A stretch of 64,000 nucleotides of DNA from Reclinomonas americana ATCC 50394 (GCA_048213135.1 PS015054.1:195812-259811), one strand, 5' to 3'; counted from the stretch's first letter, positions 1-62,180 are shown. The notes: generated by a model from the letters alone, not told the origin. Made by a program: numbers and translations.

Positions 1-974
1 GCGGTCAGCGAAAGTGCACAGAGAAAAACACACCAACAGCGCGTGTACCATTTCGCGCTGCATACGGATCAGTTCAGCGTGGCTGATACGCGCCTCCGGC
101 TGCAGGGGCGAGTGATTGTGTACACTCTGCGTGCCGCTGCCTGGCGGCGGCAGCGTAACCAGCGGCTGGCCGAGGAACTGTGGGCGGCGTCATGTGAGCA
201 GCAAGCAAATGCACTCCCAGACATGCACGTGGTTCTCACCTGCGGGCTCTGCATCGCCATCGGCGCGACCATGACGGGCACCGGGGACGGTGGACTACGT
301 GATGGCACGCCCATGAGCGGCAACGGAGGACCCTGCGCCTGCGACTGTGCGCCCCGCGCAATCGACGACTCCAGGTCGGCGGCCGACACCATCATGGTCG
401 GTGGCGGCAAACCCTGTCCGTGTGACGACGACGACGACGACACGTGAGCACCATACGGTGGTGGTGGCGACTCTTGCTGTGGGTGCTGGCGGTGATGCTG
501 CTGCTGTTGTTGTTGCTGCTGCAAGAAGGGATCGCCCAGTGCACTGCCCCACAATGGTTGTGCAGACTGCCCAAACCCGTGGCCCCACACAGAGGACGAC
601 GATCCCGATGCCTGACTACCACCACCACCACCGGAGAGCTGTGCACGTGTGTGTGTGTCGCACACAAAACAGTGTGAGAGACAAGAGCGAGTGCATGATC
701 ACATTGTTGCACTCACATGCAGCTGTCCGAGCTCCGACACAATGTCGCCCTTGTCGAACTGGTTCATGCTCCAGTCAAAGTCCTTGCCTGCGTCACGTGT
801 GTGCGTGTGAGAGAGAGAGACACACACAGAGAGCAAAAGATGCGTGACACGTGTGTGTGGCGCGAAACGAATGCTGGTCACATCGGTGTCAAAGGTTGCC
901 GCATTGGCCTCGTCGTCCTCATCGTCGTCGGCGTTCACAGCCCACTCGGGAACCTCCAAGTCCTCAGGTTCCAT
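1..974 (-). CDS. PAT1: PAT1-like mRNA decay/decapping factor, N-terminal part (spliced; runs off window start)
   Basis: Spliced N-terminus MEPEDLEVPEWAVNADDDEDDEANAATFDTDVTSIR|KDFDW resembles the Pat1 acidic 'N..TF...DFDF' Dhh1-binding segment, followed by a Pro/Gln/Ser-rich region; GT-AG introns keep the frame. The C-terminal domain lies outside the window. Confidence 0.55.
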
Positions 975-1329
975 CTCTGCTGCGTGGCACCGTGTGATTT
1001 GAGAGGAATTTTAAGTGTGTCCCGCAGTTGTCCACATCGGATAAACAACAAGGAACGAAGGAGGGTAGCAGGCGTGGCGATGATGCAGCGGCCTTGAGAG
1101 AAAGAGAGAGGAAGAGGCAAAGTTGTTCCTTTCAAAAAAACATCATAAATTCATTCACCGAACGCCATGGCCTTCGTCGCTGTCGGCAGCAAGCAGCGCA
1201 CTGTCGCCACCACCGTCACCATCAACACCAACACCACCGCCACCGTCTTGCGACACGAAGGAGAGAGAGAGAGGGAGGGAGGGAGAAAGAGAAACATGAA
1301 CGATTGGCATCGAAAAGAGTCACGCTTGT

Positions 1330-2296: not shown

Positions 2297-5200
2297 ATGG
2301 CGACGAGTGTGAGGTGCGTCTGTGTGCATACAGTGGGGAGGAGAGAGGAAACGCTTGAGCAAGTGGTACTTGTGTGTATGCGCGCGCGTGTGCGTGTGTC
2401 TCTCTCTGGTGCAAGTGCGCGTCCGGAGAAACGCAACTGCTCTCTCTTTACTCTCTCGCCTCTCGCACACGCACACACACACAAATGCACTGGTGTCACG
2501 CACACGAGAGAGAGAGAGAGACGCAGAGAGAGGAAGCAAGGCACTGCTTATGCGTCTGTGTGTGCATATGTGGTTTGTTGTGTGACATGGCACTCACATC
2601 GCGCTCACGACTTTTTTTGTGTTTGTGTTTGTGTTTCCTCTTGTGTTGTGTGTTTGTGTGCGCGACAGTGCTCCATTGAGCCCTGGCAGCGCGGCAGCTG
2701 CGGCGGCGGGTGATGGAGGTATGCGTTTGTCGCCCTCGGGTCGTGTGGTGGCGCCCGGCGAGGAGGAGTTTAGCTATCGTCCTGATGCGTCGCCCTATGT
2801 TGCGTCTTGGAGAGTGTGCAGGGAGGGAACGTGTGTGTGAGAGAGAGCGAAAGTCTGATTTTGTGTGTGTGTGCATTTTGTGTTTGCAGTCGCAAAAGTT
2901 TCGACCACCGGATTCCTTTGCGTTGCGCGCGCAGGCCGAGGCTGCGGAGCGGGAGCGCAAGATTGACGAGGTTTGTGTGTGCAGTGTGTGTGTGTGTCTG
3001 TGTGTTGTGAGAGAAGGCGTGTGTGTTCTCATTGTCCTCTCTTCTCGTTTCGCGCAGCTGCGTCAGCGTATTCGTGAGCGTGAAAAGCAGGATGCGCCGT
3101 TTGCGCCACAGATCAACACCTACAACTTCCAGGGCAAGGTGAGCAACTGCCCGCACGCACACACTCTTGTGTGTCTGTCTGTCTGTCCACTGACGGTGTT
3201 ACGCGCAGCGTGAGCCGTTTGCCGATGCGGTGAACCAAAAGATCCAGAAGCACAACGAGAAAATGTCGCAGCTGCGCTCCGGTTCGTCGGTGGACAGCGG
3301 TGGCGACGGTGGCTCGTTCAAGCCAGAGGTTTGTTGTCTGTGGTATGTGTGGCCATTGTCACCACGTTGCTCACACCCGAGTGCAGATTTCGACCTACTC
3401 CAAGTCGCTGGTGCGCACCGAGCCGGTCCACGAGCGTCTGTATCGCATTGCACGCACGCCGGAGAAGGCGCAAATGAGTCCAGGTGAGCATGAATCTGCG
3501 TTGCGCGTACGTCGATGTCGTGGCGCTCACGTGTTTGTGTGGCAGCAGGGCTCGGACCCAGCGAGGACATTGACCCGACCACGGGCCAGCCGCTCTTCCA
3601 GCCGGTGATCAACCCGGTGCACACGGTGCGCGACGAGCGTGTCGAAGAGTCGCTGTACAAGGATGCCATGAACCGCAAACTGCGTCGCGAACTGCTGCTG
3701 GAGAGCATCATGACGGCGGAGGAGCACCAGCGGCGACAGCGCAAGCTGACGCCGACCAGCTTGGAGTTTGCACGCAAGCGTGTGGAGAAGGAGCTGCAGA
3801 CGGTGTTTGAGGAGATGGACCCGGAGAACCGTGGCACCATTGGGTACACGGAGCTCGGATATGCGCTGTCGCGACTCGGCCTCTTCAAGACGGTGCGCCT
3901 TTGCATTTGTGTGTGTGCGAAAATAGTCGAGCGTGTGGGTGTTGACGTTGCCCTGTTTGTTTTTGCTTGTTTGTTCGCCGCTGTAGCCTCCGGATCAGGC
4001 GGAGAAGCGTACCGAGGAGGAGGTGCGTCTGCAAGAAAAGCTGTGGAAGATGATGGATCCGAGCGACACGGGCGCTGTCGACTACACCACTTTCTACCGG
4101 TACATGTATTCAATCATGGATCCCACCATTGCCGACGAGGAGGTCAAGTACTTTGGACCGGAGAGCCCCACACGGAAGCTCGCCAAGGAGTTCCGCAAGT
4201 TGCTGGTGAACAAGCTGGCGTACGTGCCAACGCACCGCACCAAGGCTGAGAAGCAGGCCGAGAAGCAAGTGCGCCGTCCGATGTCGGCCTCGCCGCACGC
4301 CGAGCAGTCGCAAAGGGTGCGCTTGTGGTTCATGTGTGTACGTGCTTCCACACAAGTTCTCACCACGCGTGTATGTATGTGCGGTGCAGAGTGCTCGCCG
4401 CTCGAGCGGAAGCCCGACTGGCTCGGAGAACGGACAACGCCGTGGCTCGGCGGAAAGTGCCGAGTTCTCGCGCCGTCTGTACGAGCGCGACAGGAGCCTG
4501 CAAGAGAAGCTGGACAGTCAGCGCGAGAAGCTCAAGCAGGATGAGCTGAAGGAGTGCACCTTCAAGCCGGAGATCAACACTCGCTCCCGCAAGATGGACA
4601 CTGGCGAGCCGCCAGCGGTGAGGCATTATTCTCTCTGTGTCATTTTCTCTCCACATAGAACTCTTGTCTGACCCGTTTTCTTGTGTGTTTGTGTGTGTGT
4701 TGCTCGGTGCAGGGCCGCAAGAATGAGCAGCTGTACGCGATGCGCGAGCGCCCGCGTCCGACTGCCAACCTGCCGACGTCGGTGGATCGCGAGTACGATC
4801 AGCACTGCACCTTCCGCCCCGACACGACCATGAGCAAGAGGTTTGGCGGCGGTGCATGTCTCTGTCGCTGCTATGTGACTTGTGTGACTGATCCTTCACA
4901 TGGTATCGCTTTACACGCTGTTGGCGCAGCAGGAAGGCACCGGTTCCCAAGTACACACCGTCGGGATACAAGCAGGCGATTGAGCGCATGCGCCACGCCA
5001 AGGCCGAGCGCCAGGCACAGACTCACGACGATGTTGCGTACACAGCGCATTCTCCTCGTCGTACCATCTGTTTCTCACCTCCGCGCGTAATCGCAGTTCC
5101 CCACGTCGCTCCGCACGGCCGAGGAGAAGGCCGGGGAGGATGCGTCGGTCTCCGTGACCGGCAAGCGACCGACGGAGCCCAAGCCGTTCGAGTTTGAGCT

Positions 5201-6213
5201 CGACAAGCGACGACGGACACGACCGCTGCTGTACATTGACGTCAATCTGGGCCACGGCAAGTTGCGTACATGACGCGCAGTGTGATGACGGGTCGCGTAC
5301 CGACTGCTCACCGCGTTTCTTCTTTTCTTCATAGGACTGGTCGCATTGGCGTGCACGAGGGTGACGACCCATCGTTGCTGGCACGCAACTTTGCCGTGTC
5401 GTACCGATTGGACGACTTCCTGTGCAAGCGCCTGGAGGAGCTCATTGTGCAACACATGGAGGCGCAAGCCATTCCCTTCACTCGCTCCGAGTCCACTGGC
5501 GACGCAAAGCCGCTGTCGCCCGGCCGCTATCCGGAGCTGGCGAGCGGACACCGCTTGACCGAGCAGTCGTTCTCTTTCCGCGCCCCGAACCGACGCGACA
5601 TGAGCGAGGCCGATCGTGCGCATGAGGAGTATGCACCACACACGTTTGAGAATCAGTTTGCCGATCAGGACTACACGCTGCAGTACCCGTCGTTCGAGGA
5701 GGGGTGAGTACGCGTGGTTTTTTCGTGAGTTGCCACGTGAGACACTGATGATTTTGCTGTTGTGTTGTGAGCAGAGGCCAGTACGATTTCGCCGATGCAC
5801 ACGCATATGACGGTGAGTACCCAGAGGACTACCACCGTGCAGTCGACGAAGATGAGGGCGCTGCGTGGCACCGCCGTCAGCAGACGGACGACGAGCTGTA
5901 CGACGATGTTGTGGGCACCGTGCACCAGGGTGGTGCGGATGAGGAGGAGTACGGTGACGAGGGCGCAGCGCAGGGTGGTCTGGGCGTGCAAATGTCGTAC
6001 GGCCGCCGTGAGCAGCCGCAGGATTCGTACCCACCAGCTCGGCCGCACGTGCGCGAGGTGTACACCACGATTGAGTCACCCGCCACGGAGGGTCGCCCAG
6101 CTGCACAGCCGGTGGCAGCGGCAGGGAACGCCGCGGCCAATCGCCAGTCGGCACGGGAGGCGGTGGACGCAGCCGCCAACCTGGTACTCCGTGAGGTCGA
6201 CGGCCGTCAGTAA
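2297..6213 (+). CDS. Hypothetical EF-hand and CTFxP-repeat protein (probably cytoskeletal), about 14 exons
   Basis: Frame-consistent exon chain with repeated F(K/R/A/Q)PxIN motifs (ECTFKPEIN, HCTFRPDT, PFAPQIN, LFQPVIN), xxRLY motifs, two EF-hand-like loops (MDPENRGTIGYTEL, MDPSDTGAVDYTTF) and a PLLYIDVNLG...IGVHEGDDP domain. Confidence 0.75.
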
Positions 6214-6457
6214 TGAGCTTTCTCTCTGTCTCGCGCCTCTTTTTATTGTCTGCCGGTGATGCTTTTTTTCTCTGTCGCGCAAGTTTCTCCTGTTTTTTTG
6301 ATGGCGTCTATCGATATCTTTTCTCTCTCGTGTGTCTCTATTGCTACTCGGAAAAGAATGTACTGTGGAGTGGGAACGGAATGATTGTCGATTTGTTGGG
6401 TTTCTTCACTCAGGGGTGTGTGCCACAGCGGTGGGCAAGCAACAAACAACGCCACCA

Positions 6458-9450
6458 TTACTCCTGCTGCTGGTCCACAAGGCTCGCCTCCTCCTCCTCC
6501 TCCTCCTCCTCCGACTGCAGATCCAGCGGCTTGAACTGCGGGTGCGACTCCCCGGGCGGACCGCACGGGTTGCCACACGGCTGCGCATGCAAAAATGAAC
6601 ACAAAGCCGCACACATGAACTTCAAGCACACACACAAAAACTTACCGGGTACGGCAGACCGGCCGGCACAATGGAGACTGCGCCGCAATAGTGAGCGAGA
6701 AAAAGAAGAAAGCTGCTGTGGGAGAGAGAGAGAGCACGCACCTTGGGTGGTGAACTTGAACCAGTGCTCGCCGACCATTCCCTCGTCCATGCGCCAGTCG
6801 GCCTGGATAAAGTAGCCGCGGTAGCCAGTCTGCGGAATCGGCAGCTCGGCCACGTACTTGCCGCTGCTGTCCGGCTCCACGCGCTTCTCCGTCCATATGA
6901 TCAGCTGGATGCAGTCGGGGTTCGTCAAGTCCTCGCACTTGGCCAGGCGGAAGTCGCGAGCCTGGCAAAAAAAAAGTGGGGCGTGTCAGAAGAATGCAGT
7001 ACAGGTCATGCAGCTCTCGACGACTGGCGTGAAACCTTGTAGTTGTAGCCAGTCCACACTTCCACAATGTCGGGCTTCGGGTTGGCCGTCATCTCAATGC
7101 GGCCAGTCTTCTCGTCGCGAGTCTGTCATGAGGCATGCACGTCGTGCGCGTGAGTTTGCTTGCGGTTGACGTGAGATGAATGTAGGGGGCACTCACCCAC
7201 GACAGAGTTGGGCGCGGCAGATTGAGGGCCACACTGCGCCAGAAGGTCGACACGGCCAGCGTGACGTCGACTTGATGGCCAGTGAGAGAGTGCTCCGCAT
7301 TCGGCACCATGCGCACTGCCAGTAAATCATGAGTGAGTTTTGTTGGTTACCCATACAGATGAGTGCATGCTCTTTGACGCAACAGTACGTCTCTCCAGGC
7401 AGCTGGTTGAACCAGTACCTATGTTTGCGTGGCACGAGGTGAGATGCGTGTGCACACAAACAGAGCATGAACTTGACAAAGAAACCCCACCAGTTGTCGT
7501 CCATCTGGAAGAACTCGTCGCCAGTGGCATCAATGACGTACTTGGGCATCGTCAGGCGGTCGCGGTACGCCTATATCTTGACAGTGAGAACAAGTGCAAA
7601 ACAACTGCATTGCGCCCCAGCGTGGACGCAACAAACGGATCGATGATGGACGCCATTTGCTGGAACTGCGGAGTGTTGAGGTACCTGCGGAAAACAATTC
7701 AGCTGCTGGCCGACAAAGAAAGTCATGAACACACAGGAGCAGAGCGCAACATGGTAGTGTTCAGGGCCGTGTAGTCCTCGAAAGCAAACGTCCCTACAGA
7801 ACGATGAGTGAGAGGGAGGAGGGAAAGGGAGAGGGAAGGGAAGGGCGAGGGGGAAGGCGCAACAGAAGCCGTACGCCTGCCACATGTGGTTGCTGATGAA
7901 ATCGACGGCAGTGAGCAGACAGGAGGACATACATGTGCATCGACACGCGACTCACATGTTCTCGACCAGGTTGAGACTGCGCAGTGAAAAAACCAATCCC
8001 AACTCGTGTAAGTCACGGGCGCGATGGAAGAACGAGTCTCAGTCGAGAGTACGCAACGCATCCATCACAATCGGCACAATCGCCTTGACACGCTTCTGCA
8101 GGACGGCATCGGCCGCGCCGACAGTCCACGTGGTCCAGCCGCGCTTGCTGGCGCCGCCGACACCCCAGCCAGAGATGGGCTTCACACCAGACACGCCCTT
8201 CACGAGTTCCTCGGTGGCGTCCATGGCACGGAGCACGGCCTTGGTCATGGGCAGGCGGAGCAGCTGTGCGGCACGAAAAGTCAGGTACCTGAGAGTGCGT
8301 CCAATGAATGGTGATCACACGAACCCACTCAGGCTTGGTGGGATCGTCGATAAAGTGGCGCCACTGCACACAACGTGGCCAGGTGAGCAACAGAAACAAC
8401 GCGCGTGGTGCCATGAAAACAAAAAATACCAAGTCGCAACTGTGTACGCAATGATGCCATCCTCGGAGCGGCGCTTATTCTCGCCCGTAAAGTAAATGGG
8501 CTCGTTGGGGATCTGGAACACCGTGGCCGCAATCGTGCGCGTCTCCACAGCCACCAACTCCGTCAGAATGTCGGGCTGCAGTGACGAGTGAGCATGATGA
8601 TCTTAACACACAAAGTGGCGAGACAAAATATGCACCGTCGACGGCGGGGAGTCGTGACTTGAGGGGAGGAGAAAGAAGAAAGAAGAGTGTGAGTCAAGCT
8701 AGCAAGACATCCCCGAGCGCACTCGCATCACTCACTGCATCAGAGTATACGAGTGAGCACATAACAAGACAGGTGAGACAAGCACACATGCACACCTTGC
8801 CGTCGCCATTGATGTCTGCAGGAGGGTGGAACAAGAGAGACGCACTGTTAGCTTGCAGACGCACGCACGCATGCAGAAGGTGTCTTGACGCACACATGAA
8901 AGCCATGTCGGAGTCGCGCACATGCGGAATAATGACTTGCAGCCAGTGCCTGCGCGAGAGACATGAGTGACCACACACACGCTGCGCGCATGAGTCACGA
9001 GCCGCACTCAACTCCCACACAGAGCGGCTCGAGTCGGCGGCAGTCAGCCACGTCTGCGAGCCTGCATGAGAGAGACACACAAATGAGCATTCATGTCTTT
9101 CATGTGTGTGCATGTGAGAGAGAGACGCAACGGAGGTACACATTGTACCATGTGTAGGAGGCAGTGGACTGTGTAGAGTTGATCTTCCACATGTATCTGA
9201 GTGAGGGCGTGCGTGTGTTTCAGTGGTTTGACCCCCACAGCGGCCATGTCGAGACACAAGAGAGACGCAACGTGGAGTCGGGCTTGGCGCAGTACTCATC
9301 GAGTGCGGTCAGCGGGGAGGCCTCGGCGACTGGCACCGAGGTGGTCACGGAGACCACGAGGAGTGCGGTGGCGACGAGAAGGGCGCCGAGGAGGTAGTGG
9401 CGACGCATTCGCGACAATAAAGAGGGTTTGAATTTTTTGGACGAGGACAT
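6458..9450 (-). CDS. PqaA (PhoPQ-activated pathogenicity-related)/AprA-family secreted alpha/beta-hydrolase-like protein, about 20 exons
   Basis: Signal peptide, then family motifs TALDEYCAKPD, SQTWLT, RRSEDGIIAYT|W, LPMTKAVLRAMD, GASKRGWTTW, IVPIVMD, DRLTMPKYVIDATGDEFF, RMVPNAEHSL. Confidence 0.9.
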
Positions 9451-9544
9451 GCGAAGATCCGAAAGTGCGCTGGTGCGGTGTCACTGGGTCCCCCGTCGCG
9501 TCTGGAAGTGTAATGCACGCACTCTAGGAATACTTGAGAGAGAT

Positions 9545-10652: not shown

Positions 10653-10729
10653 TGAGATTGGTGAGCCCTCTTTACAAAACGACCAGTACTAGTGATTGCA
10701 ACAGCACCCCCTCACATCTCTCACCACAT

Positions 10730-13424
10730 CTACTCATCATCCTCATTATCAGCTGCCCCATGCGCAGCCTTCGCCGTCGCCGCCAGCACCTGCTTCAGCG
10801 TCGCCTCAGCAGTCGGCATGGAGTCCAACAGCGCGTGACTGTTTTGTGTGTCGAAGAACTGCGATAGACATCCCAGTAAGCCCACCGCATTCATCGATCT
10901 ATCTCACCGCCCCATGGCCACCAACTCACCATGTTCGGAATGCGATCGCCAAAGTACACCTTGGTGTTGTTGGCCTGCACAAGCATGCCAAGCTCAGCAT
11001 CAAAGTCTCGCTCGTGCCCCACACAAACACTACACAACACGCACCACCGCTCGGATCATTTCCAGCGTGAGGAACTCCTTTGTGAGTTGCAAGCTGTGAA
11101 GAGCTGTGAGGAAATTGAGCAATAAGAGTCCATCACATCGTATCACTCTCACCGATTGGCTTCGGCCTCCTTCATCGCCGTGTCTGCACCGCGACGCCAA
11201 TGTCAGCAACCACACATGTATCAACAAAAATGCCACGACGCAACAGTGCCGCGCATCCGCGCGATGCTTCTCCTTGGCCAGCTGGATGGCATCCTCAATC
11301 TCTGCAATCTTGCGTCGCGCCTCCTTTTCGGCAATCTCCATCTCCATGTTGATGCGTGACACCTGCGCCGGGAACAGTCAGCGACGGCAGTCCACTTCCC
11401 CCGCTGTCAGTCGAAATACCTCAGCAATCTTCTCTGCGCCGATGCGAGCCTTTTGCCGCTCCGTCTCCGCCTCACGCTCCACCACCTGTGCGTGCATCGT
11501 CAACAACACAAAGAATCCACATTCAACACGTCGATATGCGCAACCTTTTGCCGTTCGACGGCAATCAGCAGCTGCGATTTCTGGTTCTCCATGTCCTCGT
11601 ACTGCATGTCAACAAGTCAGCACACTGACACGACAACGCGAGGGCGCACACAAACAACTCACGCTCTTCGCGATGCTCGGACTCAATCGCGGCTTGGTGA
11701 TGCGAACCGACCTGCAAGAACCACAACGTGAGATGTAAAGTGCAACACAGAGGATGGCACTAGTTTGTCACTTCGCACACTGTGTGTACGACAGAGGGTG
11801 AGTGCGTTGCACATATGCTTCCACACACAACACAGGAACAAACGCACAGACTGTGCAAGCGAAACGCGCAGGTGAGTGACCATCACGCTGATACAAAAGA
11901 GCACCGCATGCACGCACTTTCAATGCCAGTGTCGTACTTGTCACAGTTGGATTGCAAGGCCTACGAACATCTCATATTGTCAGCAGCAGCGCCACTGCCA
12001 CGGCGGACAATCGCTCTGAACTTACACACCTGCAACTGTATGGAATATGTCAGCAATCACTGCATGCAAGAACAACACTCACTGGGCACGCAACGAGCAG
12101 ATCGTCGAGAGTGCCGAATTTCTGCAGACAGTTTTCGATGAGCACGAGCGGGAGTCGCGCATCAAAGACAGCAGATGAACGCAACGGTAATGTACACTTC
12201 TGTGAGGGTGGACTGCGAGCAGAACCTGCATTGCTTGCGCGGTAAGCATGCAGTGAGGCCATGGAAGACGAGACAGACAACACAACTGATTCATCTCGTG
12301 GTGAACTGTTTGCGAAAGTCACGTACGGTCAGTCTGCACGAAAGACGATGTGACACGAACACAAAGAAGCTGCACACAAGGAGTCAGTACAGGCGTGACA
12401 CAGACTCAGCAACAACAGTTGCTCACCGAAACTGCGATCGAATATCAGCGGCTTGTCGTAGTCGGGGCTGCGCAGCGACAGACGGAAGTGAGCAAAGCAG
12501 ACGGGGCGCAGTTCGTCGTCGCTTCACGCACGTGTACTCCTGCAATCATGGTTGTGAGCTACAACATGGATAACAGAGGACGCGTACTTGCAGAGACACA
12601 GACCTTCACAGTGGCAAGCACGTGTGACTTGCGCAGTCGACTGCCCACAGAGAGAGGCGAGGTAAGCATGCAGCGAGACAACTGGCGAAGGATGAAGCAC
12701 GGAACTTGACAACCTCGATCTTGGCGAACTCAACCTGCAAGCCACAGATGAGAAGCAGGAATGGCAGGCCGACGCAACACCAAGCACTTTGTTACCATGA
12801 CGCCACCACTGGTGCCGCACGGCACATTGGTCTGCCCACAGCAATCAGTAATCAACTCACAACAGCACTCGGAACAAGATAACGCACCACCGAGTCGGTC
12901 TGTTCCACGCACACGCACGCAGTGAGCAACGCAGCACATCACAACGAGAAGAGAACCCACGTGCCACACGCACCTGCGTAGTTGTCTGCACAAACTGCAC
13001 GCTGTCGAGCACCGGAACCTTCCAGTGGAAACCAGGTTCTGTGATGTAGTTCTGCAGCGCTCCACCACTGACGTGCGAAAGCAGTCAGTGCGCTGCGTGC
13101 ACCACGCGTGTCGCGGCAAACCACCACACACCGATAGTACACTCCCACATGCCTGTCGATGCGGAGAGAGCGATGCAATCAAACGAAATTGAGCGCACAC
13201 ACAGTGAGAGAGAGAGAGAGATGAACGGAAGCACAAACCCCTCAGGCACAGTCTGCAGCGATACAGTGAGACTCACGACGCAATGCGAGTGCCATGCAGA
13301 CGCGCAACGCAACATGCAGTCCTGTTTGCGACAAGACGAGAACAAGAATGACCAGCGTGACCATGACGCCTGTGCGGAAGGCGCCACCACTGCCAGCCGC
13401 CGGTGCACCAGGACCCTGACGCAT
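10730..13424 (-). CDS. ERLIN: Erlin (SPFH/band-7 ER lipid-raft protein), highly fragmented by introns
   Basis: GLH|TVPEG|HVGVYYR|GGALQ…GFHWKVP…Q|TDSV|TNVPCGTSGGVM, SVRITKP, EKEARRKIAEIEDAIQLAKEK and ANNTKVYFGDRIPNM match erlin-1/2 signatures. Confidence 0.92.
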
Positions 13425-13674: not shown

Positions 13675-14719
13675 TCATCGTCGTCGCTTCTTGCTGTTCT
13701 CCTTCTTTGCCGTCGTCTTCTTCTTCTCCTTCTCCGCCGCCTTCTTGTTCTTCTTCTTCTTCTTGTTGCTGTTGCTGTCGTTGTTGTTGTTGCTGCTCTC
13801 ATCGTCATCGGCAAGGTGCGCCTCATGCCAGCAATTTCCGACACCGACTGTGGCACGACAGAAGCGGTTGCACTTGTGCGGCTCCTGCGCGCACAGCTCC
13901 GCGCAACAGTGCGGTTGATCGTAGCACTGCAAGCGCAATGAGCATGACAGCAGCACTTACAGAGATGATGAACACAACGCAACTGCTTCCAGACACAAAT
14001 GCGCCTCCTTGACAGCCCCGCACAGGCGACTCGTCAGCGCCACCCACATGTCGCACTGTGCGGGAGCGAGGATGCCATCGTCGTCCAGCGGAGAAGGCGA
14101 AGGCGGAGGAGGAGCACGCTTCTTCTTTGTCTTTTTCTCCTTCTTCAACTCGGACTCCATCAACTTGCGCTCCGCGTGCATCCGATCGCTCCACTGCACC
14201 GAGCGCTTGAACGTCGACGTCGTGGACGACGACGCGACGCCGGACGGAAGCGGCGGCTCGACACTCCACGGGTCCTGTGGTGTGACATGATGAGTCGGAT
14301 ATCGCGAGCATGCATGTTGTGACACACACACGCACCATGAAGCAGTCCAGTGGGCGCCCATTCGCCGCACAGTAGTGTGCGCATTGACGGAAGCGGTGAG
14401 GTGCAGCACCGCACCAGTCGATGCACGCCAAAGGACTGGCAGTGCACTGTGCGAAAAAACAAAAAGAGAAATCAATTACTTTCACGCACACACGCACGTG
14501 CGCCACTGTACGCACTCGTGTCATGAACGCGCCCTCGTCCAGTGGAGGCCGGAACTTGGCTGCTGCTTGCTGCTGCTGCTGTTGTTCCTCACTTGCAGAA
14601 GAGTCGTCTTCCTCGACGAAAACGATTGCTGGCCGCTGGTGCATTGCATGTGCCACGCAGCAGAGGCACACAACCACCAAGAAGAGCACCAAGAGAAGCA
14701 GCTGGCGTGGAAGCCGCAT
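13675..14719 (-). CDS. Secreted cysteine-rich hypothetical protein with two 6-Cys modules and Lys-rich segments
   Basis: Signal peptide MRLPRQLLLLVLFLVVVCLCCVAHA; exons CTASPLACIDWC…DCF and CYDQPHCCAELC…NCW; KKKKKNKK tail. The donor of the last intron is uncertain. Confidence 0.6.
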
Positions 14720-24033: not shown

Positions 24034-24076
24034 TCCCGCTACTCTCTCACGAGCAACACAATTGATTTTTCTTCAC

Positions 24077-51100: not shown

Positions 51101-52414
51101 CATACGTGCGTGTGTGTGTGCAGGGTCGGTACCCCGTATTCCCACTGGACTGTCTCTGGTGGCGGCCAGTACCACCACCACTGTTCAAGTCGGATGGACG
51201 GCACCCAGTGACACCGGCAGCAGTTCGATTACAGGCTGGCGTATTCTCACGCAAGCGGCGTCGACGCTCTCCTACCTGCCGACAACAACACGCATCCTCT
51301 CCGACCCCAATCAACGCTCCTTCTCGCTGACCGTCGGCAACGGCGGTCTCTACCGTGTGACAGTGGCCGCCACCAATAGTTTCGGGTACAGTGAGGAGAG
51401 TGCGGCACTAGTTGTGCAAGTGGCGCCGTCCAGTGGTGCGCCGGCGCAAGTGACTGGTGTTCGCCTAATTAGTCAGGACGGCTGGTCCATGGCACTGACG
51501 TGGACTGCGGTGGCAGCAGCGAACCCACGTGTTGCCGCCACTGGCTACCTCGTTGCGTATCACACGGTGATCCAGCGGACACTGGTAAAGGCCACAGTGC
51601 AGCCGACGACGGCGACCGCAGCAGACACATTCGAGGACTACGGCTCGCTGTCGTGGGTCACTGTCACCGGCCAGGCCAACAACGCAGTGGTGATTTCGCC
51701 CCTCAAGCCGTCAACCATGTACGCGCTCCGTGTGCTGGCCTCGGACGGCACGCAGTTTGGCTTGGCAAGCACTGTTCTGCGCCAGCAGACATCATGTGCG
51801 TTGTTTATCGCTGGCTTTGCATACGCGAAGGAAGTGTGCCTCTCAATTATTCGCCTCTCTCTCTCTCTCCCTCTGCAGCCGCCACGCCCAGCTCACCCAC
51901 TTCGGTGGTGGTCACGAACCGCACGGGAACGACGGCCACACTTTCCTGGTCGCGCCCGGTCAGCTCTGGTGTCGGTGTCCTCACTGCGTACCGCATCAGC
52001 TGGATGCCGACCGACGGCAGCTCCACCGGCGGCAGCATTGATTACGACGGCTCGAACAGCACCTACACTGTCACGTTGCGTTCGTCTTGTGATGCTGTTT
52101 TTTTGTTGCAGAAGAACGCCGGCCGCGGCTCACTGTTGTTGATGCAGTGGTCTTACGACGGGCGTTGCATACGAGTTCACTGTGCGGGCAGTGAATGGGT
52201 TCGGTGCGGGAGACAGCTCGACTGTGCGGGCTGTGGTCTCCTCCTGTTGCGTCGCGTGCACGTGTAATCCAATGCTTCCTGTACACCATTCATCCTGACC
52301 AGCTGTATCTCGAACATTTCTACAGCCGCTGGCACTGCATCAGCCGGGCATCCACCATCCTTGTTGCTGCTAGCATTACTATGCACTTTGGCCACGATCG
52401 TCGCCGCAATGTAA
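45193..52414 (+). CDS. Large secreted Ser/Thr-rich protein with about 16-17 fibronectin type III repeats and a probable GPI-anchor signal
   Basis: Signal peptide; repeated P..PTN…L.W..P…G…L..Y…GL…T.Y…V.AVN..G units; last exon gives …SSSAGTASAGHPPSLLLLALLCTLATIVAAM*. Confidence 0.88.
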
Positions 52415-52702: not shown

Positions 52703-55700
52703 ATGGCGGCAGCAGTGCTGGTGATGCACCTTGTGTGTCTGTGTTTGTGTGTGAGTGTGTGCGTGTGTCTTGGCGCCATCGCCATCCACCGACTCCGACA
52801 AGAAAGAGCATCACTCTCATGTTGGCCACTGATCGTTTCCTGCCTGCTTTTCTCTGTCTTTGTGTTCTGTGCGCACTTGATCGTTGCATGCCACTGGTGC
52901 ACATGGTGTTCTGTGGGGCGCGCCTGGCTGCGCGTGGCATTTCCTACTTGCCTTGTGCACGCAGCGCGCCCTCCTTTCCCACGTTCGCGCACCTCGCGCG
53001 CTCGTGCGCTTCCCGTCACGTGCGTGCGCCCTCACGTAGTCATTCGTTGGTGCTCGCAGAGGAGCCTGTGGGCGATGGCGACGCGCAGAAGCGACGCCGC
53101 TTGGCGGGCGACGATGTGTTCGATCAGGGAACTGGTGCTGCATCAGTTTTGGCCTCATCGTCGTCGTCGTCGATGTTGGGCGGCGGAGGTCTCGGGATGG
53201 GCGCACTGGATGGCACTGCCGGTGGTGCTGGTGGAGTCAATGCGGGCATGTCACTGGACCTGAGTGCGGCTGGAGGATACGCCCCGTCGCTGTACAATCC
53301 TCTGGGGGCGCTGGGACATCCGCTGCTGATGGCTCCACAGCTGCAGGAGCTACAGTTGCAACAGCTTCAAGAGCTGCAGATGCAACAGCAGCTGCATCGC
53401 TTGCAGCAACTGCAGCAACTACAACAGCTGCAACAGCTTCGCCAGCAGCAACAGCAACAGCAACAACAACAACAACAACAGCAGCAGCAGCAGCAACANN
53501 NNNNNNNNNNNNNNNNNNGCAGCAGCAGCTGGCACAACAGCAGCATGCGCAGTCGCAGTCGTCGGCGTTGCAGCAACTGCAACAGCAACTGCAGCAACAG
53601 CAACAACAGCAACAGCTTCAGCAGCAGCAGCAGCAGCAGCAACAGCTCCAACAGCAACCGCAGCAGTCGTCGCAGCAACAGGGGTCGCAGGCGAGTGGCT
53701 CCACGCCTGGTGGTCAGCAAGCCAGTGGGTCAATGTCGCAGCTGGCACAGCAGCAGGAGTTGCTGCGCGCGGCAGCTGCGGCCTCCGCACCGTCGCTGAT
53801 TTCTCCGCTGTCGGGACTCGTGTCGCCAGTGGCCGGTCTCATGTTTCCGGGTCTCTATTCGCCATTCCTCGCCCAGTCGCAGCCGGGACTGGGCGGGTTG
53901 TTGACAGCGGCGTCGTTGGCCGGAATTCATCAGGGTCTGGTTGGCTCGCGTGATCTTCAGTCGGCAGCTGGCTTGACTTCGCTTGGGTTCCCGCTGACCA
54001 CCAAGCCGGTATGGTCGCCGTTCACGGCCGTGGAGGAGGCCACAATGCCCGCGGGGTCGCGAATTGGGCCTCCACTGGTGGGTGCCAGCTCGCAGTCGCT
54101 GCAGAGTGGATCACAGCAGCAGCAGCAGCAGCAGCAGCAACAGCAACAACAGCAGCAGTTGCAGCAACAACAGCAGCAACAGCTACAACAGCAACAGCAA
54201 CTCCAGCAACTACAGCAGCTGCAACAGCTACAACAGCTGCAGCAATTACAGCAATTGCAGCAATTCCAGCAGGCACAACTCTCTTCAAACCAAGGGATGA
54301 CGTCGGTGCCGCCGCCGCCACCACCAGCTGCGCCGCCGGCATTGCCGACGGCTCACCAACACCAGCAGCATCAACATCACCATCATCACCACCATCAGCA
54401 ACAGCAGCATCACCATCACCAGAGTCAGCACACGCGTGACTTGCTGTACACGCCAACCAGTGTGCGCACCACCAGCACTGCGTCGTCGCCCTCGTCCGCC
54501 ATCTCGACCATGCTGCATTCCTCGGGCGTCACCACCACCATGCCCACGGCGCAGTCGGCGGGTGGATTCCGTCAGTTGGCGCCGGGTAACGGCTCAGGTG
54601 CATCCTCTATGCTGGGCGGTGGGCTTCCGTCGTCGCAATTATCGCTGCATGGGGGTTTCATGGGCGATTCGTTCGGCCAAGGCAGTTTCGGTGACCCGTC
54701 GCTGCTGCAATACGCGCAGCCGTCGTCACCGTCGGGTGGTGAGAAAGACAGGGGTGTGGCACGGCGTCGTGCCAGTCAGAGCGAGGCCGAGATCGCCAAC
54801 GCGAATTCTCGGCCGTTGGTGTCCACTGATTGGTTCCCTTTTATTCGGTGCGTGCTCAGCCCTACAATGCGTCATCCGCTTCCGTCACTCATCAGTGCCC
54901 GCCTGCAGGTTCCTCAACATGGATTCGTGGCAGGAGTACCATGCCAGTGCTGTGGAGAAGACAAACACGTATGTGACGCGCAATTTGCAGCAGCGGTCGC
55001 TGCAGACGAGCCCGCGCACAACCGGTGCCGACAATTTTAAAGTCCGACTGCGAGTTGCGCTCTCGTGTGGTGAAAAGAAAGGTGGGCGACTGCCTGCGCT
55101 TACTTATGCACCTTGTTCGACTAGGCTCTGTTTGATGTTGTCGAGAGCTTCCTGGATCAGTGGAGTCGGTTGACAAAGGCTGGTCAACGGGCCGAGGCGC
55201 AGGAGGTGTTGCAGAAAGCCACCGACTACATTGTTGCCACGTGCCAGGCCGAGTATCCTGGCATACAACGACGAGCGAAGAATTTTCAGGAGCGGTGCGT
55301 GTCTCCACCGCATTGTTGTTGTTGTTGTTGTTGTTGTTTTGTGTTTATCTCATGCCACGCGGCGACACAGCATCTGGGCCGTGTTGCGCGATCGGTATGC
55401 GCGACTCATTGCACTGTCGCCGTCCGGACCGAGTGGCATTTTCGAAGTGCTCGAGGTGCGTTGCTTTTGCCTGTGAAGAGGTGACTTGGGAGGGTTGGCT
55501 GACGTGTTGATGGTCGACCAGATTCACCGCATGTACCACGACGACTCTCTCAATCGACAGATTGCGATTCCCACCACCGTCACGTACCCCTCGGGAATCT
55601 TGCGACACATTCAGTGTGGTGAGCTGTCCCTTGTTTCTGCCCCTCCATCGTGCGGCGGTGCGCTGACACTGTTGTTTCCTTCGTGTGGTGTCACAGTGTG

Positions 55701-56083
55701 CCGTCTGCCCGACACGGAGGGCTCCATGCGTCACCACAATCGACGCTCGTACCTGCCGGTCACCATCAATGTTGCGTGTGTGTCGTGACGGAGAAGTGCG
55801 TGGATGGCGAGTGTGAGCTGACTGTGGCGGTTTGCAGATGCCGGGCCGTGAGGCACTAAAGTTGTGGTGTGCACTCGAGCCACACGAGCGGGAGGCCGTC
55901 GAGGCCGCCGGTGTCGATGACATGTGCGGGCACCTCATGGGTCCACCTGCCGTGCAGCTCTCGTCGTCGCCCACGTCGGCGCTGGACGGACCCGCGTCGC
56001 CGCCACATGGCAATCCGAATGGCTCCTCTTCATTACCCAGCTACCTGTTGTTTAATCCGCACGGCGCCGACTTCGAATCGTAG
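52703..56083 (+). CDS. Poly-glutamine-rich hypothetical (likely nuclear) protein spanning an assembly gap
   Basis: KRRRL NLS-like motif, long CAG/CAA tracts, poly-H; globular C-terminal exons ending …HGADFES*. The first exon is tentative. Confidence 0.65.
53340..53660 (+). repeat. CAG/CAA polyQ trinucleotide tract containing a 20-N assembly gap (53499-53518)
   Basis: Directly visible in the sequence. Confidence 0.95.
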
Positions 56084-56286: not shown

Positions 56287-59200
56287 ATGAGCGACGCAGG
56301 AGCAAGTGCGGCTGCACCGCTCGTGACATCGTCCACTGACCAGCACGACTTGCTGCGCGTTCAGCGTGTGCACGTGCCACTCGATCAGCACACGCGGTTC
56401 GTGATGCGAACCCTGAGCCAGTGTGTGTGTGTGTGTCATCGTTGACCGTGTATGTGCTCTACACAGTGATGCGGTGCGCGCCAAGGAGGCCCGTCGGTAC
56501 CTGGAGAAGCAGATGGAGGAGACAGAGCGACAGGCACATCGACGGGTCACTGAAGTCGAGATGGTTGGTTGGCCTTCGAGGGGGTGCTGACTCGCCAGTG
56601 TTGCCTCTCATCGTCGTGCAGGAATACCAACGACAAGTGGACATGCTGCAGAGGCAGCTGCAGGCGGTGAATCGCGAGTTGGAGTCAGAGCGCGTGGCAG
56701 AACGCGAGGTATCAATTCTCTCTCTCTTGCTCTCTTTGTCTCTCTCCGTGCTTGTTGTGTAACATCCGCGTGTTTCCTCGCCTGCGCAGGCACTGGAAGA
56801 GTGTGAGCAGGTGGCTGCTGACGCCGAGTTGCTGCGGCATCGATACGATGAGGTCTTGCGGCGGGAGAGTGAGCAGGTGAAGCAGAATGCAGAATTGGTT
56901 GCCGCCCTCGAGAACACGCGACGAGAGTGTTGCGTCAAGCGATTGGTTCTCCTCGCACCGCGTGTGCCACACCGATACTGAGGAGGAGGAGGGTGTCTGC
57001 TTGAACACAGATCGCACGTGCTGGCAGCAAAAGGAGGAGACCGAGAGACAGATGGAGCGGCAGCGCAAGGACTCGAACAAGTTGCATGAACGAAACACGG
57101 CGCTGGTACACCAGCTGGAGCTGCGCACACAAGAGGTGCGGCACCGTGGGTGGTGTGCCTGAGTTTGCGCGCGTGGTGGCCCTGACATGTCGATGGGGCA
57201 GCTGGGAACGTTGCAGGATCGGCTGGCCGCTCTCGAGGAGGAGCAGAGCAAGTGGCATGTGAGGGAGAACAGCATGGGCCAAGAGCTGGGTACGCTGCGC
57301 GCAGAAGTGCGTCGTCTCACCGAAGAGACGGCGGCGGCGAAGAAGCATGCTGACGATGTCACGTCGTCGCTCGCCATCGAATCCGATCGCACCACGTTGC
57401 GACTGGAGGCGTTGCGCAAGGAGGCCGAGGCGGAGGTGACGCGTAAGACTGCAGAGGCCGCCACGTGGCAAACCAAGTTCGAGCACCAAGTCGACATGGT
57501 GAGGAGACACGATTGTCGACGATTGCATGTGGAACTGGAGACTCACTCGCCCATGTGTATGAAGACACGCCACCTGGAAGGATCCATTCAGCGGCTGGAG
57601 ACGTCAGTGGCCGACTTGTCACGGCAGCGCGATGAACTGAGGAGACAAGTGGAATTGCGGCGCGAGGAGTTTGTGGCCGAGTCTCGTCGAGCGCTTGAGC
57701 AGCTCACAGAAGACTTGGCCGGCATGCGACGCAGCATCGAAACACTTCGTGCACAGAACGAAGAGCTGCGGACGCAGGCAGACCAGGCACGGCAGACGTT
57801 GAAGCAGAAGCAGGACAAGCACGCCGAGAAGAAGCGGCGTTTCGAGTCACAGGTGCACCTTGTGGCCTCGTGCAGAGAGTGTTTGTCGCGCCGTCGCTTA
57901 CATAAGTTGACAGATGCGAGCGATGGAACAAGAACACAAGCGTCTGCAACAGTCTGCCGAGGAAGCCCTACAGCGTGCCGAATCGCGTGCCGAACAGGTC
58001 TGTGTGGCCTGGCGAGTACTGTGTGTGAGAGACGTGTGGCTGATGTGAGTTGATGCTGTTGTGCAGCTGGCCAACAAAGTCGCGACTGGTGTCGATGACC
58101 TCAATCGGATGCGGCTGGAAGGCGAGAGAGCGCGGATTGATTCTGAGCGGTTGCGTAGCGAGGCGTCGGAGTTGCGACTGCAGCTGCAGCAAATGGAGTC
58201 GGTCGCCGCTGCCTCTCGTGCCGCTGCGACGCAGGACGAAATCAAGCAAGCCGACATGCAGCGCCGTGTGGCAGAGTGTTGCGTTGCATTTTGTTGTTGT
58301 TGTTGTTGTGTTCGCGCCATGAGTCTCATGCGATACGCAGTGGAGACCATGTTGCGGCAGACGGAGGAGAAGCAGGGTGGTCGAATGGCACAAGTGGAAA
58401 AGGAGCGAACAAAATGTTGCGCCGTCCACATCCTTTCCCTCTTCTTCTCTCGCCCCCCTGCTCACCTTGTTGTGTGCGTCCAGTGGCTGCTAGCCATCGT
58501 CGTCTGGACATTGCACTGGACTTGTCGACCAAGGCTCGACAGACGCGCCTGCGTCACCAGCAGCTGCGACATTGCTGGGAGGTTTGGTGAGTTGGGAGTG
58601 TGTGCTCGTGATTACCACATCCGCGCGCAGCGACTGAATGGCGCTGCCGTGACAGGGTCCTGTTTGCCAAGCAATCGCGACAGGAGCGGCTGCAGGCAGC
58701 AGCGCGCGCGCATCATGTATCCAAGACCAAGCTCTTGGTACGAACCGTGCAGCAGCTGCGGCGGGAGGCCACCTTGCGGCAGGCGTTTTCCACGTGGTTG
58801 GCGTCGCACGCTGCCGCCAAGATCGCCAACACGCGCTTGTGCGTCCACTTTCCCCCTCTATTGCAGTGTCTTGGGTGTATAAGTATGCTGAACTGTTGCT
58901 GGAGCGCACAGGGCTTCCATGGCTGCCATCAAGATGGAGCGTAACAAGGTCGAGGCGCAGTTGGAAGCCTTGCAGAAGGAGGCCGCCTCGCACGCGGCAC
59001 AGGCCGCTGCGGCGCAGCACACGGTCGCCTCACTCACCAATCTGGCCGCCTCCACACGCGGTGCGCATACTTGTGGATTATTGTTCTTGTTGCCCACAAT
59101 CATGCTGAGGGTGGTTGCTGCGCGATTGTAGAGCGTCTGATGGACCCGCGAGTTGTGCTGCACCTGGTGTTCACCTTGTGGAAGTATCGCGCGCGTCACC

Positions 59201-62180
59201 GAAGACTCAAGCGATCGCTCAACGGTGGCGCCTCTGAGGCTGACCGATTGCGTGTGCTGGTGGAGCGCGTTTCGGACGCGTGGCATCAGCAACGAGCGGT
59301 GGCGAGTGCCTTTGGTCGCTGGAGGACCGGAGTGGCTCGTTTGCGACTGGAGCAGGCACAGCAGGCGACACCAGTGTCACGCAAGTCGGCACCACCCACA
59401 CAACCCACACCTCCCGTGTCTCGACTGCCGCCACCAGCGCGTCTGGATGTGGACACGGAGAGCATGGTTTGGGGTGGATGTGGAATCAAGGGATGCCACG
59501 AAGGAGTCGTTTTTCTCACTACGCTGTGTGTGTGCGTGTGTGCAGCGGTCAGATTCGCGCCGCGTGGGGAGCGCACCGATCCCCGTCGCTCATGTGACGT
59601 TGCGTGATGCAGGCGTGTGTTTTTGCGTACCCACCACCATTTTTGTGTACCGACGATCGAGTGCGTGCAGTATCGACCAGGCCACGTCACCGATGCCGCA
59701 GCCCGCAGCGTCGCGGTCACCTGCGCCACCGCCACCGCCACCTCCACCACCGCAGTTGTCAGTCGAGCCGCCATCCATTGTGGTGGGTGTTTTTTTCTCC
59801 GCCGCCGACTGTTCGTGTAGTTGCTGACTGCTGCTGGTCGCAGGTGGTTCCGGCTCAGGACACTCAGGTGCAGGAGAGGTTACAGCAATCGATTGAGGTT
59901 ACACTACTTGTGTGTGTGTCTGGTAGCATACACCAGCTTCTTGTGACTTACACACACGCGCGCGGTGCAGCAATTGAGCGTCGGTCTGCAGCACCTCGTG
60001 GAATCCACCGTCAAGTCGGAGGATCGAAATCTGAGTCGCATTGAGCAGCTGGCGGCAGCCGTCGGTCGTACCAATCAGGCCACCACAGAGGCCGTGAAAA
60101 TCATTCGCGTGAGTCGCCATCTTTATGTGTGTGTGTGCGCGCGCGTGTCACTGCGTGCGACTGAATGCCAGACACAGGATATGAAGCGCTCGGTAGACCG
60201 CGCACACGTGGCGCCAAAGCGGGACCGCACGCCACCACCGCCAGCCCCAGTCTCTGCACCACAGCGAGCTGCGCCAGCGAACGCCTTTACTGGCGCCATG
60301 CCGACAGTGGCGGGGGCTGTGGCGACGCACGGTATTCAGACCGAGTTGCGCTCGATTCGCAACTCGGGCACCATGACCGACAGTTGCGCTCGACTTGTAT
60401 TGGTGTGAGGTCGGAGAGTTTACTCACATCGCACTCATTTCGTAGGTGCCGATGCGACGATGGCGCCGCTGTCGGCAGGATCCTCGCCGCAAAAGAGAGC
60501 TCCACGGCCAGCGTCTGCACCAAAACCAGGCACTGCTGTTGCGTGACCCTTGCGCGTCCAGTGTGTGAAATTCTTTGCTCACATCCACTTTTTTCGCGCA
60601 GTCGTCTGGTCGCCTGCCGCCTCAGCTGGCCGGCAACCATCGGTCGTCGGATTTTACCTCCCGTCGGCGACCTGTTCCGCATGCTTCGCGACCACCGACC
60701 GCCTCGTCAACGAGCCACAAAACGACCCGACCGCGATCTGCGGCCGCCAGCGATCGTCACGACGCGCTGCCACCACAGCTTACAGTGGCGAGTCAATCGC
60801 CTTCGCCTCGTCGCGGTCGTGCGCGTCACGGCATGCGCAGCAGCAGCAGCATGAGTCCCCGCGATCCGCAGCGCTTGTCGTCGGTGCAAAACATTGTTGA
60901 TCGGATGGTGGAGGCCGACAAGGCCGCTGCCCGGACGGCGATGGCGCAGCAGCGCATGAACAGCGAGGCACTGCGACCGCACGTCGCTTCCTTGTCGTCG
61001 ACACTCTCGGCGACCACCACCGCGGACTCGACGCCGCTCACGGTGAGTCTGACTGTCGTGTCGTGTGTGCGGTGATTGCTTTTCCCGTTGCGTGCATGCT
61101 CACGCGTGGACGACACAACAACACAGGGAACGATTGGCGGTAGCAGTGGTGGCATGATGAGTTCGTCGGAGGTCCTCCTGACGCGCACCATTGGCATGGA
61201 TGTTGTTGTGCGGCCGACAGTTCCCATGGGTACCACCACGGTTTCGGCCATTAGCAGCGACATTTCACCCACCAGCAGCAAGAGCGGCAGCAACGCAAGT
61301 GGCACCAATACCGGTCACCTGCTCGCCGGCACCGTGACAACTGGCGTCTCGTTCGCGTCCAGTTCCACTGCGACGGGTTCCGGTCCAATGCCCTTCCGCC
61401 CCGACATGATCACACCGCCGCCTGCCGCACGTGTGGCCCCGACGCTGGCATGGCCACAATTGCCCGACACACCCGTTTCATTGCCGCAGCTGCCGCCAGT
61501 GCCCGTATCGCCTCCTCGTCGGTCGCCGTCGCCGCCACCGATGCTGCACAGGGCAGAGGATCCATTCAGTCGGCACCGCCACCAGCCGACCGACGCCGTG
61601 CGGACGGCAGGTCCGTCGGCCCCGGCGGCCCCCGCTCACGTGACCACAGTGCGGCGCGAGGTGCCGGTGGTGGATTCGCGTGACAGCAGCAAGTCCACAG
61701 CCTCGAAGCCCTCCGCAGGGTACATGCACAAGCAGGTCAAGGTGGACAAGGGAGTCAAGGTGTGTGTCCGCGTTTGTGCACAGCCGAGTGATGTGCATGT
61801 GAAGCTGCAACTGATGAACGGGGTGTGCGCAGCGAGCCACTCGTGCAGTGGCACCAGTGGCGGTCGACAGTGACTTGCTGTCGCCACCGGCGGCCGGCAA
61901 GAACACGCCGACCACCCTCCGACGGCACTTTGAGGAGCGCGCGGCCAGCAACCACGAGGATCAGGAGCTGATCCGGCGGTTGATGGCCGAGCAGCACGCA
62001 CGCTCCAATCCTGCATCGTCGAGCACCTCGCCCATTCCCACCGACGGCGATGTCGGTGTCAGCGGGATCGACAGGGGTGGTGCGCTGAAGAATCTCGATG
62101 CACCAAGCGGCTCCACCACTGCTTCATCGACGCCCACACTGATGGTGCTCTCCGACAACCCATCGCCCGACAACAAGTAA
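56287..62180 (+). CDS. Long coiled-coil protein with Pro/Ser-rich C-terminus (many exons)
   Basis: E/R/Q/L heptad-rich exons joined in frame from MSDAGASAAAPLV to …DNPSPDNK*. Confidence 0.75.

Follow-up and report, generated by a model that had tools for sequence, protein, structure and literature searches.

The window analysed here is a 64,000-nucleotide stretch of Reclinomonas americana ATCC 50394 (GCA_048213135.1 PS015054.1:195812-259811), and positions are counted from its first letter. It is intron-rich eukaryotic nuclear DNA with a GC content of 56-61%, carrying genes for G-alpha, an AprA/PhoPQ-related (AprA-like) protein, erlin, a TAF8-like protein, a cyclin K/L-like protein, a RAD6-like E2, an RRM protein and a very long FN3-repeat protein. 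Its introns are short (median approximately 70 nucleotides, nt), with YTSAY branch motifs and CAG acceptors, and it is their 5′ splice sites (donors) that are described below. Donors with G at +5 are designated class A; those with T at +3, G at +6 and no G at +5 are designated class B, typified by GTTGCG(T) in place of the usual G|GTGNGT type; the rest are grouped as "other." From genomic DNA and homologous proteins, class B is confirmed as a second, routine donor class of genuine GT-AG introns, accounting for approximately 26-43% of the introns here.

Because circularity had to be avoided, a donor-blind Viterbi gene finder was written, which uses codon statistics, intron composition and an acceptor matrix and requires of a donor only that it read "GT"; an intron-length prior was added later. 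The second method was a protein-profile-to-genome spliced aligner, which is motif-blind in that it knows only GT..AG. The first, prior-free version of the gene finder made errors, including one predicted 35-nt intron, and skipped or read through several class B introns and micro-exons. The donor-blind gene finder recovered 17 introns of a homology truth set of 20, from which the AprA introns 8793, 8635 and 7490 were left out as lying in poorly aligned stretches. Introns were considered confident if they were 45-110 nt long, if read-through was impossible and if the coding score of both flanks was positive. The confident set (n = 102) is made up of 99 ab initio introns and three homology-only class B introns added by hand, and comprises 50 class A, 29 class B and 23 other donors. 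The share of class B is thus 28% (29/102), or 26% (26/99) without the three additions, and it rises to 43% (10/23) among homology-guided introns, in agreement with the preliminary description of this DNA, which had proposed two donor classes and a large minority of introns using the second as a routine mode.

That description had listed 28 donors of the second kind. The motif is present at every one (24 GTTGCG, two GTTCCG, one GTTTCG and one GTTCAG), and an exonic G at -1 is as rare as had been claimed, being found once (39828), with T at 14, A at nine and C at four of the others. Twenty-one of the 28 were picked by the donor-blind gene finder, and 13 of those 21 pass the strict filter; each of the seven that were not picked precedes an intron-like stretch, as judged by eye. 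A further 24 GTT..G donors, absent from the earlier list, were picked by the same program.

The donor word emerged from both versions of the gene finder. Among the 162 introns of the first blind model the top donor hexamer was GTTGCG (19), followed by GTGAGT (14) and GTGCGT (11); with the intron-length prior, 189 introns were predicted, led by GTTGCG (35), GTGCGT (18) and GTGAGT (12). GTTGCG occurs at 67 of 4448 sense-strand GT sites, which would give 2.85 among 189 donors where 35 are found (hypergeometric p = 1.7e-31), an approximately twelvefold enrichment over all sense GT sites. Within genes GTTGCGT is also strand-asymmetric (39 sense, eight antisense). The association of G at +6 with T at +3, which had been put forward as a property of the class, is borne out: +6 is G in 29 of 33 (88%) confident GTT donors lacking +5G, against 23-26% at comparison GTT sites (150/572 non-donor sense-strand sites; 75/325 sites inside predicted introns). 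Across the 52 confident donors without +5G the coupling of +3T and +6G gives counts of 29/4/3/16 (Fisher p = 3e-7).

Independent placement of the junctions comes from homologous proteins. Motif-blind profile alignment returned 23 introns, of which 10 are class B: nine of 18 in the AprA-like gene (6400-10760, -), aligned to a profile built from 78 full-length AprA/PhoPQ-related homologues, and one of five in the G-alpha gene (15487, GTTCAGT), which was also found with an 85%-identical homologue. The AprA-like donors read GTTGCG at 9271, 9131, 8440, 8057, 7863, 7750, 7632 and 7383 and GTTGAG at 9012. An eleventh junction, 23849 in the TAF8-like gene, is backed by Pfam Bromo_TP, positions 6-36 of which lie in exon 1 and positions 41-68 in exon 2; the domain is contiguous across the junction once two unaligned residues, the split codon and the first exon-2 residue are counted. 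Eleven class B junctions are therefore gapless against homologue profiles (AprA-like nine, G-alpha one, TAF8-like one). These introns are as follows, the AprA-like ones all from profile alignment.

9197..9271 (-), class B, GTTGCGTCT, C at -1, 75 nt, AprA/PhoPQ-related gene (motif-blind, 78 homologues)
9062..9131 (-), class B, GTTGCGTCT, C at -1, 70 nt, AprA-like gene
8950..9012 (-), class B, GTTGAGT subtype, A at -1, 63 nt, AprA-like gene
8364..8440 (-), class B, GTTGCGACT, A at -1, 77 nt, followed by a 39-nt micro-exon, AprA-like gene
7977..8057 (-), class B, GTTGCGTAC, C at -1, 81 nt, AprA-like gene, alignment gapless over the junction
7794..7863 (-), class B, GTTGCGCCT, T at -1, 70 nt, AprA-like gene
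7685..7750 (-), class B, GTTGCGCTC, T at -1, 66 nt, AprA-like gene
7571..7632 (-), class B, GTTGCGTCC, T at -1, 62 nt, AprA-like gene
7316..7383 (-), class B, GTTGCGTCA, T at -1, 68 nt, AprA-like gene
15487..15550 (+), class B, GTTCAGT subtype, A at -1, 64 nt, G-alpha; tblastn with the 85%-identical homologue and profile alignment, ILQ/SMR gap-free
23769..23849 (-), class B, GTTGCGTCT, T at -1, 81 nt, TAF8-like gene; Pfam Bromo_TP contiguity, also in the ab initio confident set

An alternative cut, G|TT..AGN, would yield an intron of the same length; it changes the encoded residue at two of the nine AprA class B junctions and leaves the same peptide at the other seven. At both informative junctions the GT..AG reading yields the consensus residue. 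The junction codon of 8364..8440 gives W, as in the consensus, against G in the alternative reading, and that of 7316..7383 gives the consensus L, against W; the alternative cut was accordingly rejected. The first model had read through intron 7571..7632, and removal of that intron eliminates the false insertion of 9 residues. On the strength of donor-agnostic prediction, homologue alignments and enrichment, the class B donors are therefore judged to be real.

Elsewhere the support is of another kind. The erlin junctions, sites 13313, 12705, 12185 and 12094 among them, rest on frame and intron-like context, as do the cyclin junctions and the seven listed sites that the gene finder did not pick. 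One erlin exon matches Erlin-2 chains in the PDB, and an erlin open reading frame (ORF) piece searched against a representative library gave two matches, both unrelated. In the cyclin gene, exon 4 aligns with residues 128-185 of cyclin K; no cyclin match in Pfam or PDB came from exons 2 and 3 alone, so that the junctions 21868 and 22069 gain no support from contiguity.

The AprA alignment also revealed a 39-nt micro-exon (8325-8363, -) that the ab initio model had missed. Its 13 codons fit the homologue consensus W-R/K-x-F-L...E-W, and it separates an intron of class B from one of class A. The erlin gene seems to hold more micro-exons, one candidate being the open 27 nt that separate the 12185 intron from the 12094 donor.

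Of the 15 gene regions with confident introns, 12 contain class B introns. Those below were obtained with the donor-agnostic model and belong to the confident set.

2799..2889 (+), class B, GTTGCGTCT, T at -1
5033..5096 (+), class B, GTTGCGTAC, T at -1
5261..5334 (+), class B, GTTGCGTAC, A at -1
11486..11544 (-), class B, GTTGCGCAT, G at -1, erlin-like gene
11184..11244 (-), class B, GTTGCGTCG, T at -1, erlin-like gene
13927..13983 (-), class B, GTTGCGTTG, A at -1
17804..17864 (-), class B, GTTGCGAAT, A at -1
18574..18634 (-), class B, GTTGCGTAT, A at -1
21713..21779 (+), class B, GTTGCGTGC, T at -1, cyclin K/L-like gene
22069..22130 (+), class B, GTTGCGTCG, A at -1, cyclin K/L-like gene
28074..28147 (-), class B, GTTTCGT subtype, T at -1
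28694..28766 (-), class B, GTTTCG subtype, T at -1
33679..33746 (+), class B, GTTGCGATC, A at -1
34285..34352 (+), class B, GTTGCGTGC, C at -1
52075..52147 (+), class B, GTTGCGTTC, C at -1, FN3-repeat gene
55054..55124 (+), class B, GTTGCGCTC, A at -1
55771..55837 (+), class B, GTTGCGTGT, T at -1
56929..57010 (+), class B, GTTGCGTCA, T at -1
58416..58483 (+), class B, GTTGCGCCG, T at -1

For contrast, three class A introns found both by profile alignment and in the confident set are given.

7123..7196 (-), class A, tgg/GTGAGTGCC
6678..6741 (-), class A, aag/GTGCGTGCT
15713..15781 (+), class A with T at +3 and G at +5, ctg/GTTCGTGCA

The two classes follow distinct sequence rules at the donor. 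The exonic base at -1 is G in 40 of 50 class A sites (T 5, A 4, C 1 in the rest) against two of 29 class B sites (T 12, A 10, C 5), a difference with a Fisher p of 1e-10; measured against exon composition, G at class B -1 is below the 31% G of exons (binomial p = 0.002) and T is above the exonic 18% (p = 0.003). The conserved G is followed by T in both, at +6 in 38/50 class A and at +7 in 21/29 class B donors. By definition +3 is T and +6 is G in all 29 class B sites. Between these positions +4 is G in 25/29 and +5 is C in 26/29, mirroring the commonest class A +3/+4, and the pair GC stands there in 24/29 (p = 1.4e-6 versus class A +3/+4, where the pairs are GC 13, GA 11, GT 6, TT 4, TC 4, CT 4, CA 3 and AC 3 among 50). 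The class B sequence is, in effect, the commonest class A site (GTGCGT) moved one place downstream by a T after the GT, with the exonic G gone.

Beyond the donor the classes are alike. Median intron length is 69.5 nt in class A and 68 nt in class B (range 57-91 nt); a YTSAY branch motif is found in 44/50 and 26/29, respectively, at a median distance from the acceptor of 19 and 16.5 nt; and acceptor type (CAG 24, TAG 5 in confident class B introns) and base composition do not differ. The 23 other donors are a mixture of probable errors and AG/GT sites with weak intronic parts. Two of them, 50524 (+; aag/GTAACGT) and 61058 (+; gtc/GTGTCGT), carry A or G at +3 together with +6G and +7T; donors of this kind, numbering three against 29 with T, might belong to the displaced register with another base as the extra one.

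Class A is itself unusual. Its +3 is G, T or C, with A in only 4/50, and its +4 is C, A or T, with G in 1/50, so that GTAAGT occurs once in 50; the constrained positions are -1G (40/50) and +6T (38/50), +5G being fixed by definition. GC mutation pressure would fit this pattern, as would a U1 whose reading of +3/+4 departs from the textbook. Three of the 29 class B introns (21713-21779, +; 17804-17864, -; 7571-7632, -) carry the reverse complement of their 5′ end (GCGCAAC or GCGCAA) near the branch/3′ region; these self-complementary ends could pair the two ends of the intron and are too rare to be a general feature.

No spliceosomal small nuclear RNA (snRNA) gene was detected in the 64-kb window with Rfam at gathering thresholds; at E ≤ 10 the window matched isrG and microRNA-type families, most strongly on the CAG/TG repeats at approximately 53.3-54.3 kb, and no spliceosomal snRNA. 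Duplex energies were calculated against the textbook U1 5′ end (AUACUUACCUG), which may not be that of the host, with pseudouridines and U1 proteins ignored. The mean best-duplex free energy (ΔG) was -6.5 kcal/mol for class A, -1.3 kcal/mol for class B and -2.7 kcal/mol for 500 random non-donor GT sites. The best class A duplex sets G+1 on C8 in 46/50 sites, 39 also having G+5 on C4, while the minimum free energy duplex sets G+1 opposite C9 in 3/29 class B sites. For CAU/GUUGCGUC the canonical, shifted and bulged registers gave +2.7, +1.9 and +2.6 kcal/mol. Five U1 pairs form in either of the first two (+2.7 vs +1.9 kcal/mol, again for the textbook U1 and not the host's own), and the five that GUUGCGU forms when shifted are interrupted and have a positive ΔG (+1.9 or +0.4 kcal/mol); GUUAAGU, the human type, reaches -2.4 kcal/mol in the shifted register. 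In a hypothetical U1 5′ end, positions 5-6 were set to G-C and position 8 to A; class B then came to -10.1 kcal/mol against -4.9 kcal/mol for controls, and G+1 faced position 9 in 27/29 sites. Such ends are our own constructs and indicate only the type of partner that would suit GUUGCGU.

The preliminary description had read these donors as U1 pairing in a register shifted by one nucleotide, with adapted U1/U6 or auxiliary factors as a rider. Part of this stands, in that G and T have moved to +6/+7 and the -1G is missing; the part that does not is the Roca-Krainer shift on ordinary U1, with which class B pairs poorly. The two pseudouridines of U1 are unable to read GC, and GC occupies +4/+5 in 24/29 class B sites, so a shift on ordinary U1 is unsupported. 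Class B pairs worse than random GT sites in every register, and an adapted or variant snRNA or a protein factor therefore appears to be needed; the data thus favour the kind of partner that the rider had envisaged.

We infer, with modest confidence, that an adapted or variant RNA of the U1 type pairs with class B one nucleotide out of the usual register. GTTGCG(T), with the rarer GTTGAGT, GTTCAGT, GTTCCGT and GTTTCG(T), forms the 5′ ends of short GT-AG introns, which would be removed by the major spliceosome; the G-C-G-T block lies one nucleotide farther from the cut behind an extra T, and the exonic -1G is dispensed with. In the displaced register G+1 would take the usual place of G-1, and G+6/U+7 those of G+5/U+6, with U6 and U5 still setting the cut at GU. 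Owing to the poor pairing and the demand for GC at +4/+5, the partner is probably not the textbook U1; it may be an adapted or variant U1 with A opposite U+2 and G-C readers at positions 5-6, or a helper protein. A fuller version, which we regard as possible and put forward tentatively, is a two-register code, in which a U1 dedicated to the purpose or re-tuned for it (with A replacing C8, say, and G-C readers replacing the two pseudouridines) would read the GUUGCGU of approximately a third of introns, U6 accepting the extra nucleotide next to the catalytic GU.

Several points weigh against recognition by a displaced U1-type RNA. The energies carry the simplifications given above, and the favourable ones come from constructed U1 ends. 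The shift predicts A at -1, opposite U10, as at -2 of class A (A 22, C 11, G 10, T 7); the class B -1 bases (T 12, A 10, C 5, G 2) depart from this (chi-square p = 0.04). Neither a shift nor a bulge on standard U1 explains the depletion of G and excess of T at -1. The strict GC at +4/+5 could equally reflect contact with a protein or with U6. The 23 other donors are there because the ab initio set contains false introns, and the donor class itself is seen through genomic DNA.

Five other explanations were considered, three of which concern what the introns are. The junctions might be mis-assigned, the true donors lying elsewhere or the cut being G|TT with the 3′ end one base on, and GTTGCG simply a word that TG/CG-rich introns often contain. 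The gene finder does err, as seen in the three of 20 homology introns that it missed and in the 35-nt intron of the first model; however, 11 junctions are fixed without gaps by homologue profiles, the displaced cut gives the wrong residue in both informative cases, and the twelvefold donor enrichment, together with the 88% of +6G at GTT donors against 23-26% elsewhere, makes this reading very improbable. Introners are transposon-derived introns of Micromonas, Aureococcus and dinoflagellates, and class B resembles them in comprising many introns with a stereotyped terminal sequence. Copies of such an element, its end supplying GTTGCGT, would account for the uniform donor word and the uniform lengths of 57-91 nt, but class B introns share nothing beyond their first 7 nt. 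With the first 8 nt removed, weak blastn links join 20/406 B-B, 58/1225 A-A and 69/1450 A-B pairs (all approximately 5%), no B-B pair reaches E < 0.01, and class A has the same lengths and branch motifs. Class B is not an introner family, because there is no further shared sequence; being no more alike than class A introns beyond the donor word, its members were rejected as mobile copies, an origin to which we give very little weight. Two discrete donor consensus classes within the same genes are also the hallmark of the U2/U12 split, and class B could on that ground belong to a second, minor spliceosome. U12-type introns have an RTATCCTT donor and an acceptor-near branch site with its own consensus, whereas class B has a GTTGCGT donor, CAG/TAG acceptors, and a branch site, spacing, length and composition shared with class A. 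U12-type identity was rejected since every one of donor, branch motif and spacing is either unlike U12 or the same as in class A, and we consider it scarcely credible; a share of 26-43% would moreover far exceed any known minor class, that of human being put at 0.36% of introns (PMC4856993).

The other two accept the introns and differ on how their donors are read. Recognition of class B might need no U1 pairing: a sequence-specific protein might bind GTTGCGT as its word, or U6/U5 might read it directly. This fits a standard-U1 pairing below that of random GT sites, a word that is stricter (GC in 24/29) than the equivalent class A positions (13/50), and a -1 preference for T/A that suits no U1 register. 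It lacks a candidate factor, and the G..GT spacing is that of class A displaced by one nucleotide, as pairing to an RNA of the same kind would give; we regard it as unlikely. Alternatively, the standard U1 may bind in the normal register (G+1 to C8, U+2 to A7) with one U (+2 or +3) bulged. Such a register has been described for human sites (Tan et al. 2016, PMC4856993), class B does equal the commonest class A site plus one inserted T, and a one-nucleotide intronic insertion is the simplest evolutionary route between the classes. A -1G would, however, still pair with C9, so its frequency should match that of class A, and it is 2/29 against 40/50; for CAU/GUUGCGUC the bulged duplex with standard U1 comes to +2.6 kcal/mol. 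A bulge on standard U1 is, in our opinion, improbable, and a displaced register with an adapted or variant U1-type RNA is preferred.

Few recognition events in eukaryotes are as conserved as the base pairing between the 5′ splice site and the invariant U1 5′ end, and displaced or bulged registers are known to us only as rare human exceptions. If the displaced register holds, a free-living protist would demonstrate that the splicing code can take up a second register, with its own rule at -1, as a standard component, and the flexibility of the U1-to-U6 hand-off would be directly testable. Gene finders trained on a single donor matrix will mis-annotate such genomes.

In their account, Tan et al. 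(2016, PMC4856993) put the combined share of validated non-canonical U1 registers at approximately 1.5% of human 5′ splice sites; in the shifted register, described by Roca and Krainer (2009) and summarized there, G+1 pairs with C9 of U1. The human shifted sites resemble class B in their +3T, in a conserved G at +6 instead of +5, in U at +7, in needing no -1G and in a cut at GU; they differ in being GUUAAGU-like, in pairing with the two pseudouridines of U1 and in being rare, whereas the GUUGCGU of class B pairs poorly with standard U1, serves 26-43% of introns and is preceded by T or A, with G avoided. The human +2/+3 bulge registers covered by that account likewise have one extra nucleotide between GU and the downstream paired block, but they keep the G-1:C9 pair, and class B is without a -1G. 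In tunicate genomes, as reported in PMC13326754, a lineage-wide change of splice rules is tied to modification of U1/U6 and to changes in U2AF; there the introns are mostly non-GT/AG, whereas class B keeps GT and AG and differs only in the register of the downstream block. Our literature search found no description of a GTTGCG/GUUGCGU donor class, supplements and subscription journals lying outside its coverage. The novel aspect would be the use by U2-type GT-AG donors of a non-canonical register as a standard mode, though an earlier description may exist.

The FN3-repeat gene (44623-52300, +), two ORF pieces of which match Pfam fn3 at E 1e-21 to 1e-24, has both donor classes between its repeats. 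Repeat-to-repeat comparison could reveal whether the class switches at orthologous intron positions.

As to relatives, the named sequences closest to G-alpha are those of the heteroloboseans Naegleria fowleri (70%) and Willaertia magna (67%), and two further records are 83-85% identical. A metagenome scan with a G-alpha exon gave 10 loci, the best 64% identical, none near enough for comparison of intron donors. For Diplonema papillatum, 1.6 introns per gene and a median intron of less than 1 kb are reported (PMC10161547), and for Andalucia godoyi 88% of 864 characterised mitochondrion-targeted genes are given as intron-free (PMC7050145); neither profile fits the DNA described here.

A PDDEXK_6 (DUF506) ORF lies at 35691-36734 (+); its sole database relative in the searched length range is from the green alga Micractinium, which is odd beside a heterolobosean-like G-alpha. 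A run of 20 N at 53499-53518 marks an assembly gap within long CAG/poly-Q coding repeats (approximately 53.3-54.3 kb), which are also the source of the spurious sub-threshold Rfam matches to isrG and microRNA families. Microsatellites of the (TG)n, (GA)n and (CA)n types are plentiful in introns and intergenic DNA, for example at 640-680, 2380-2530 and 63740-63835.

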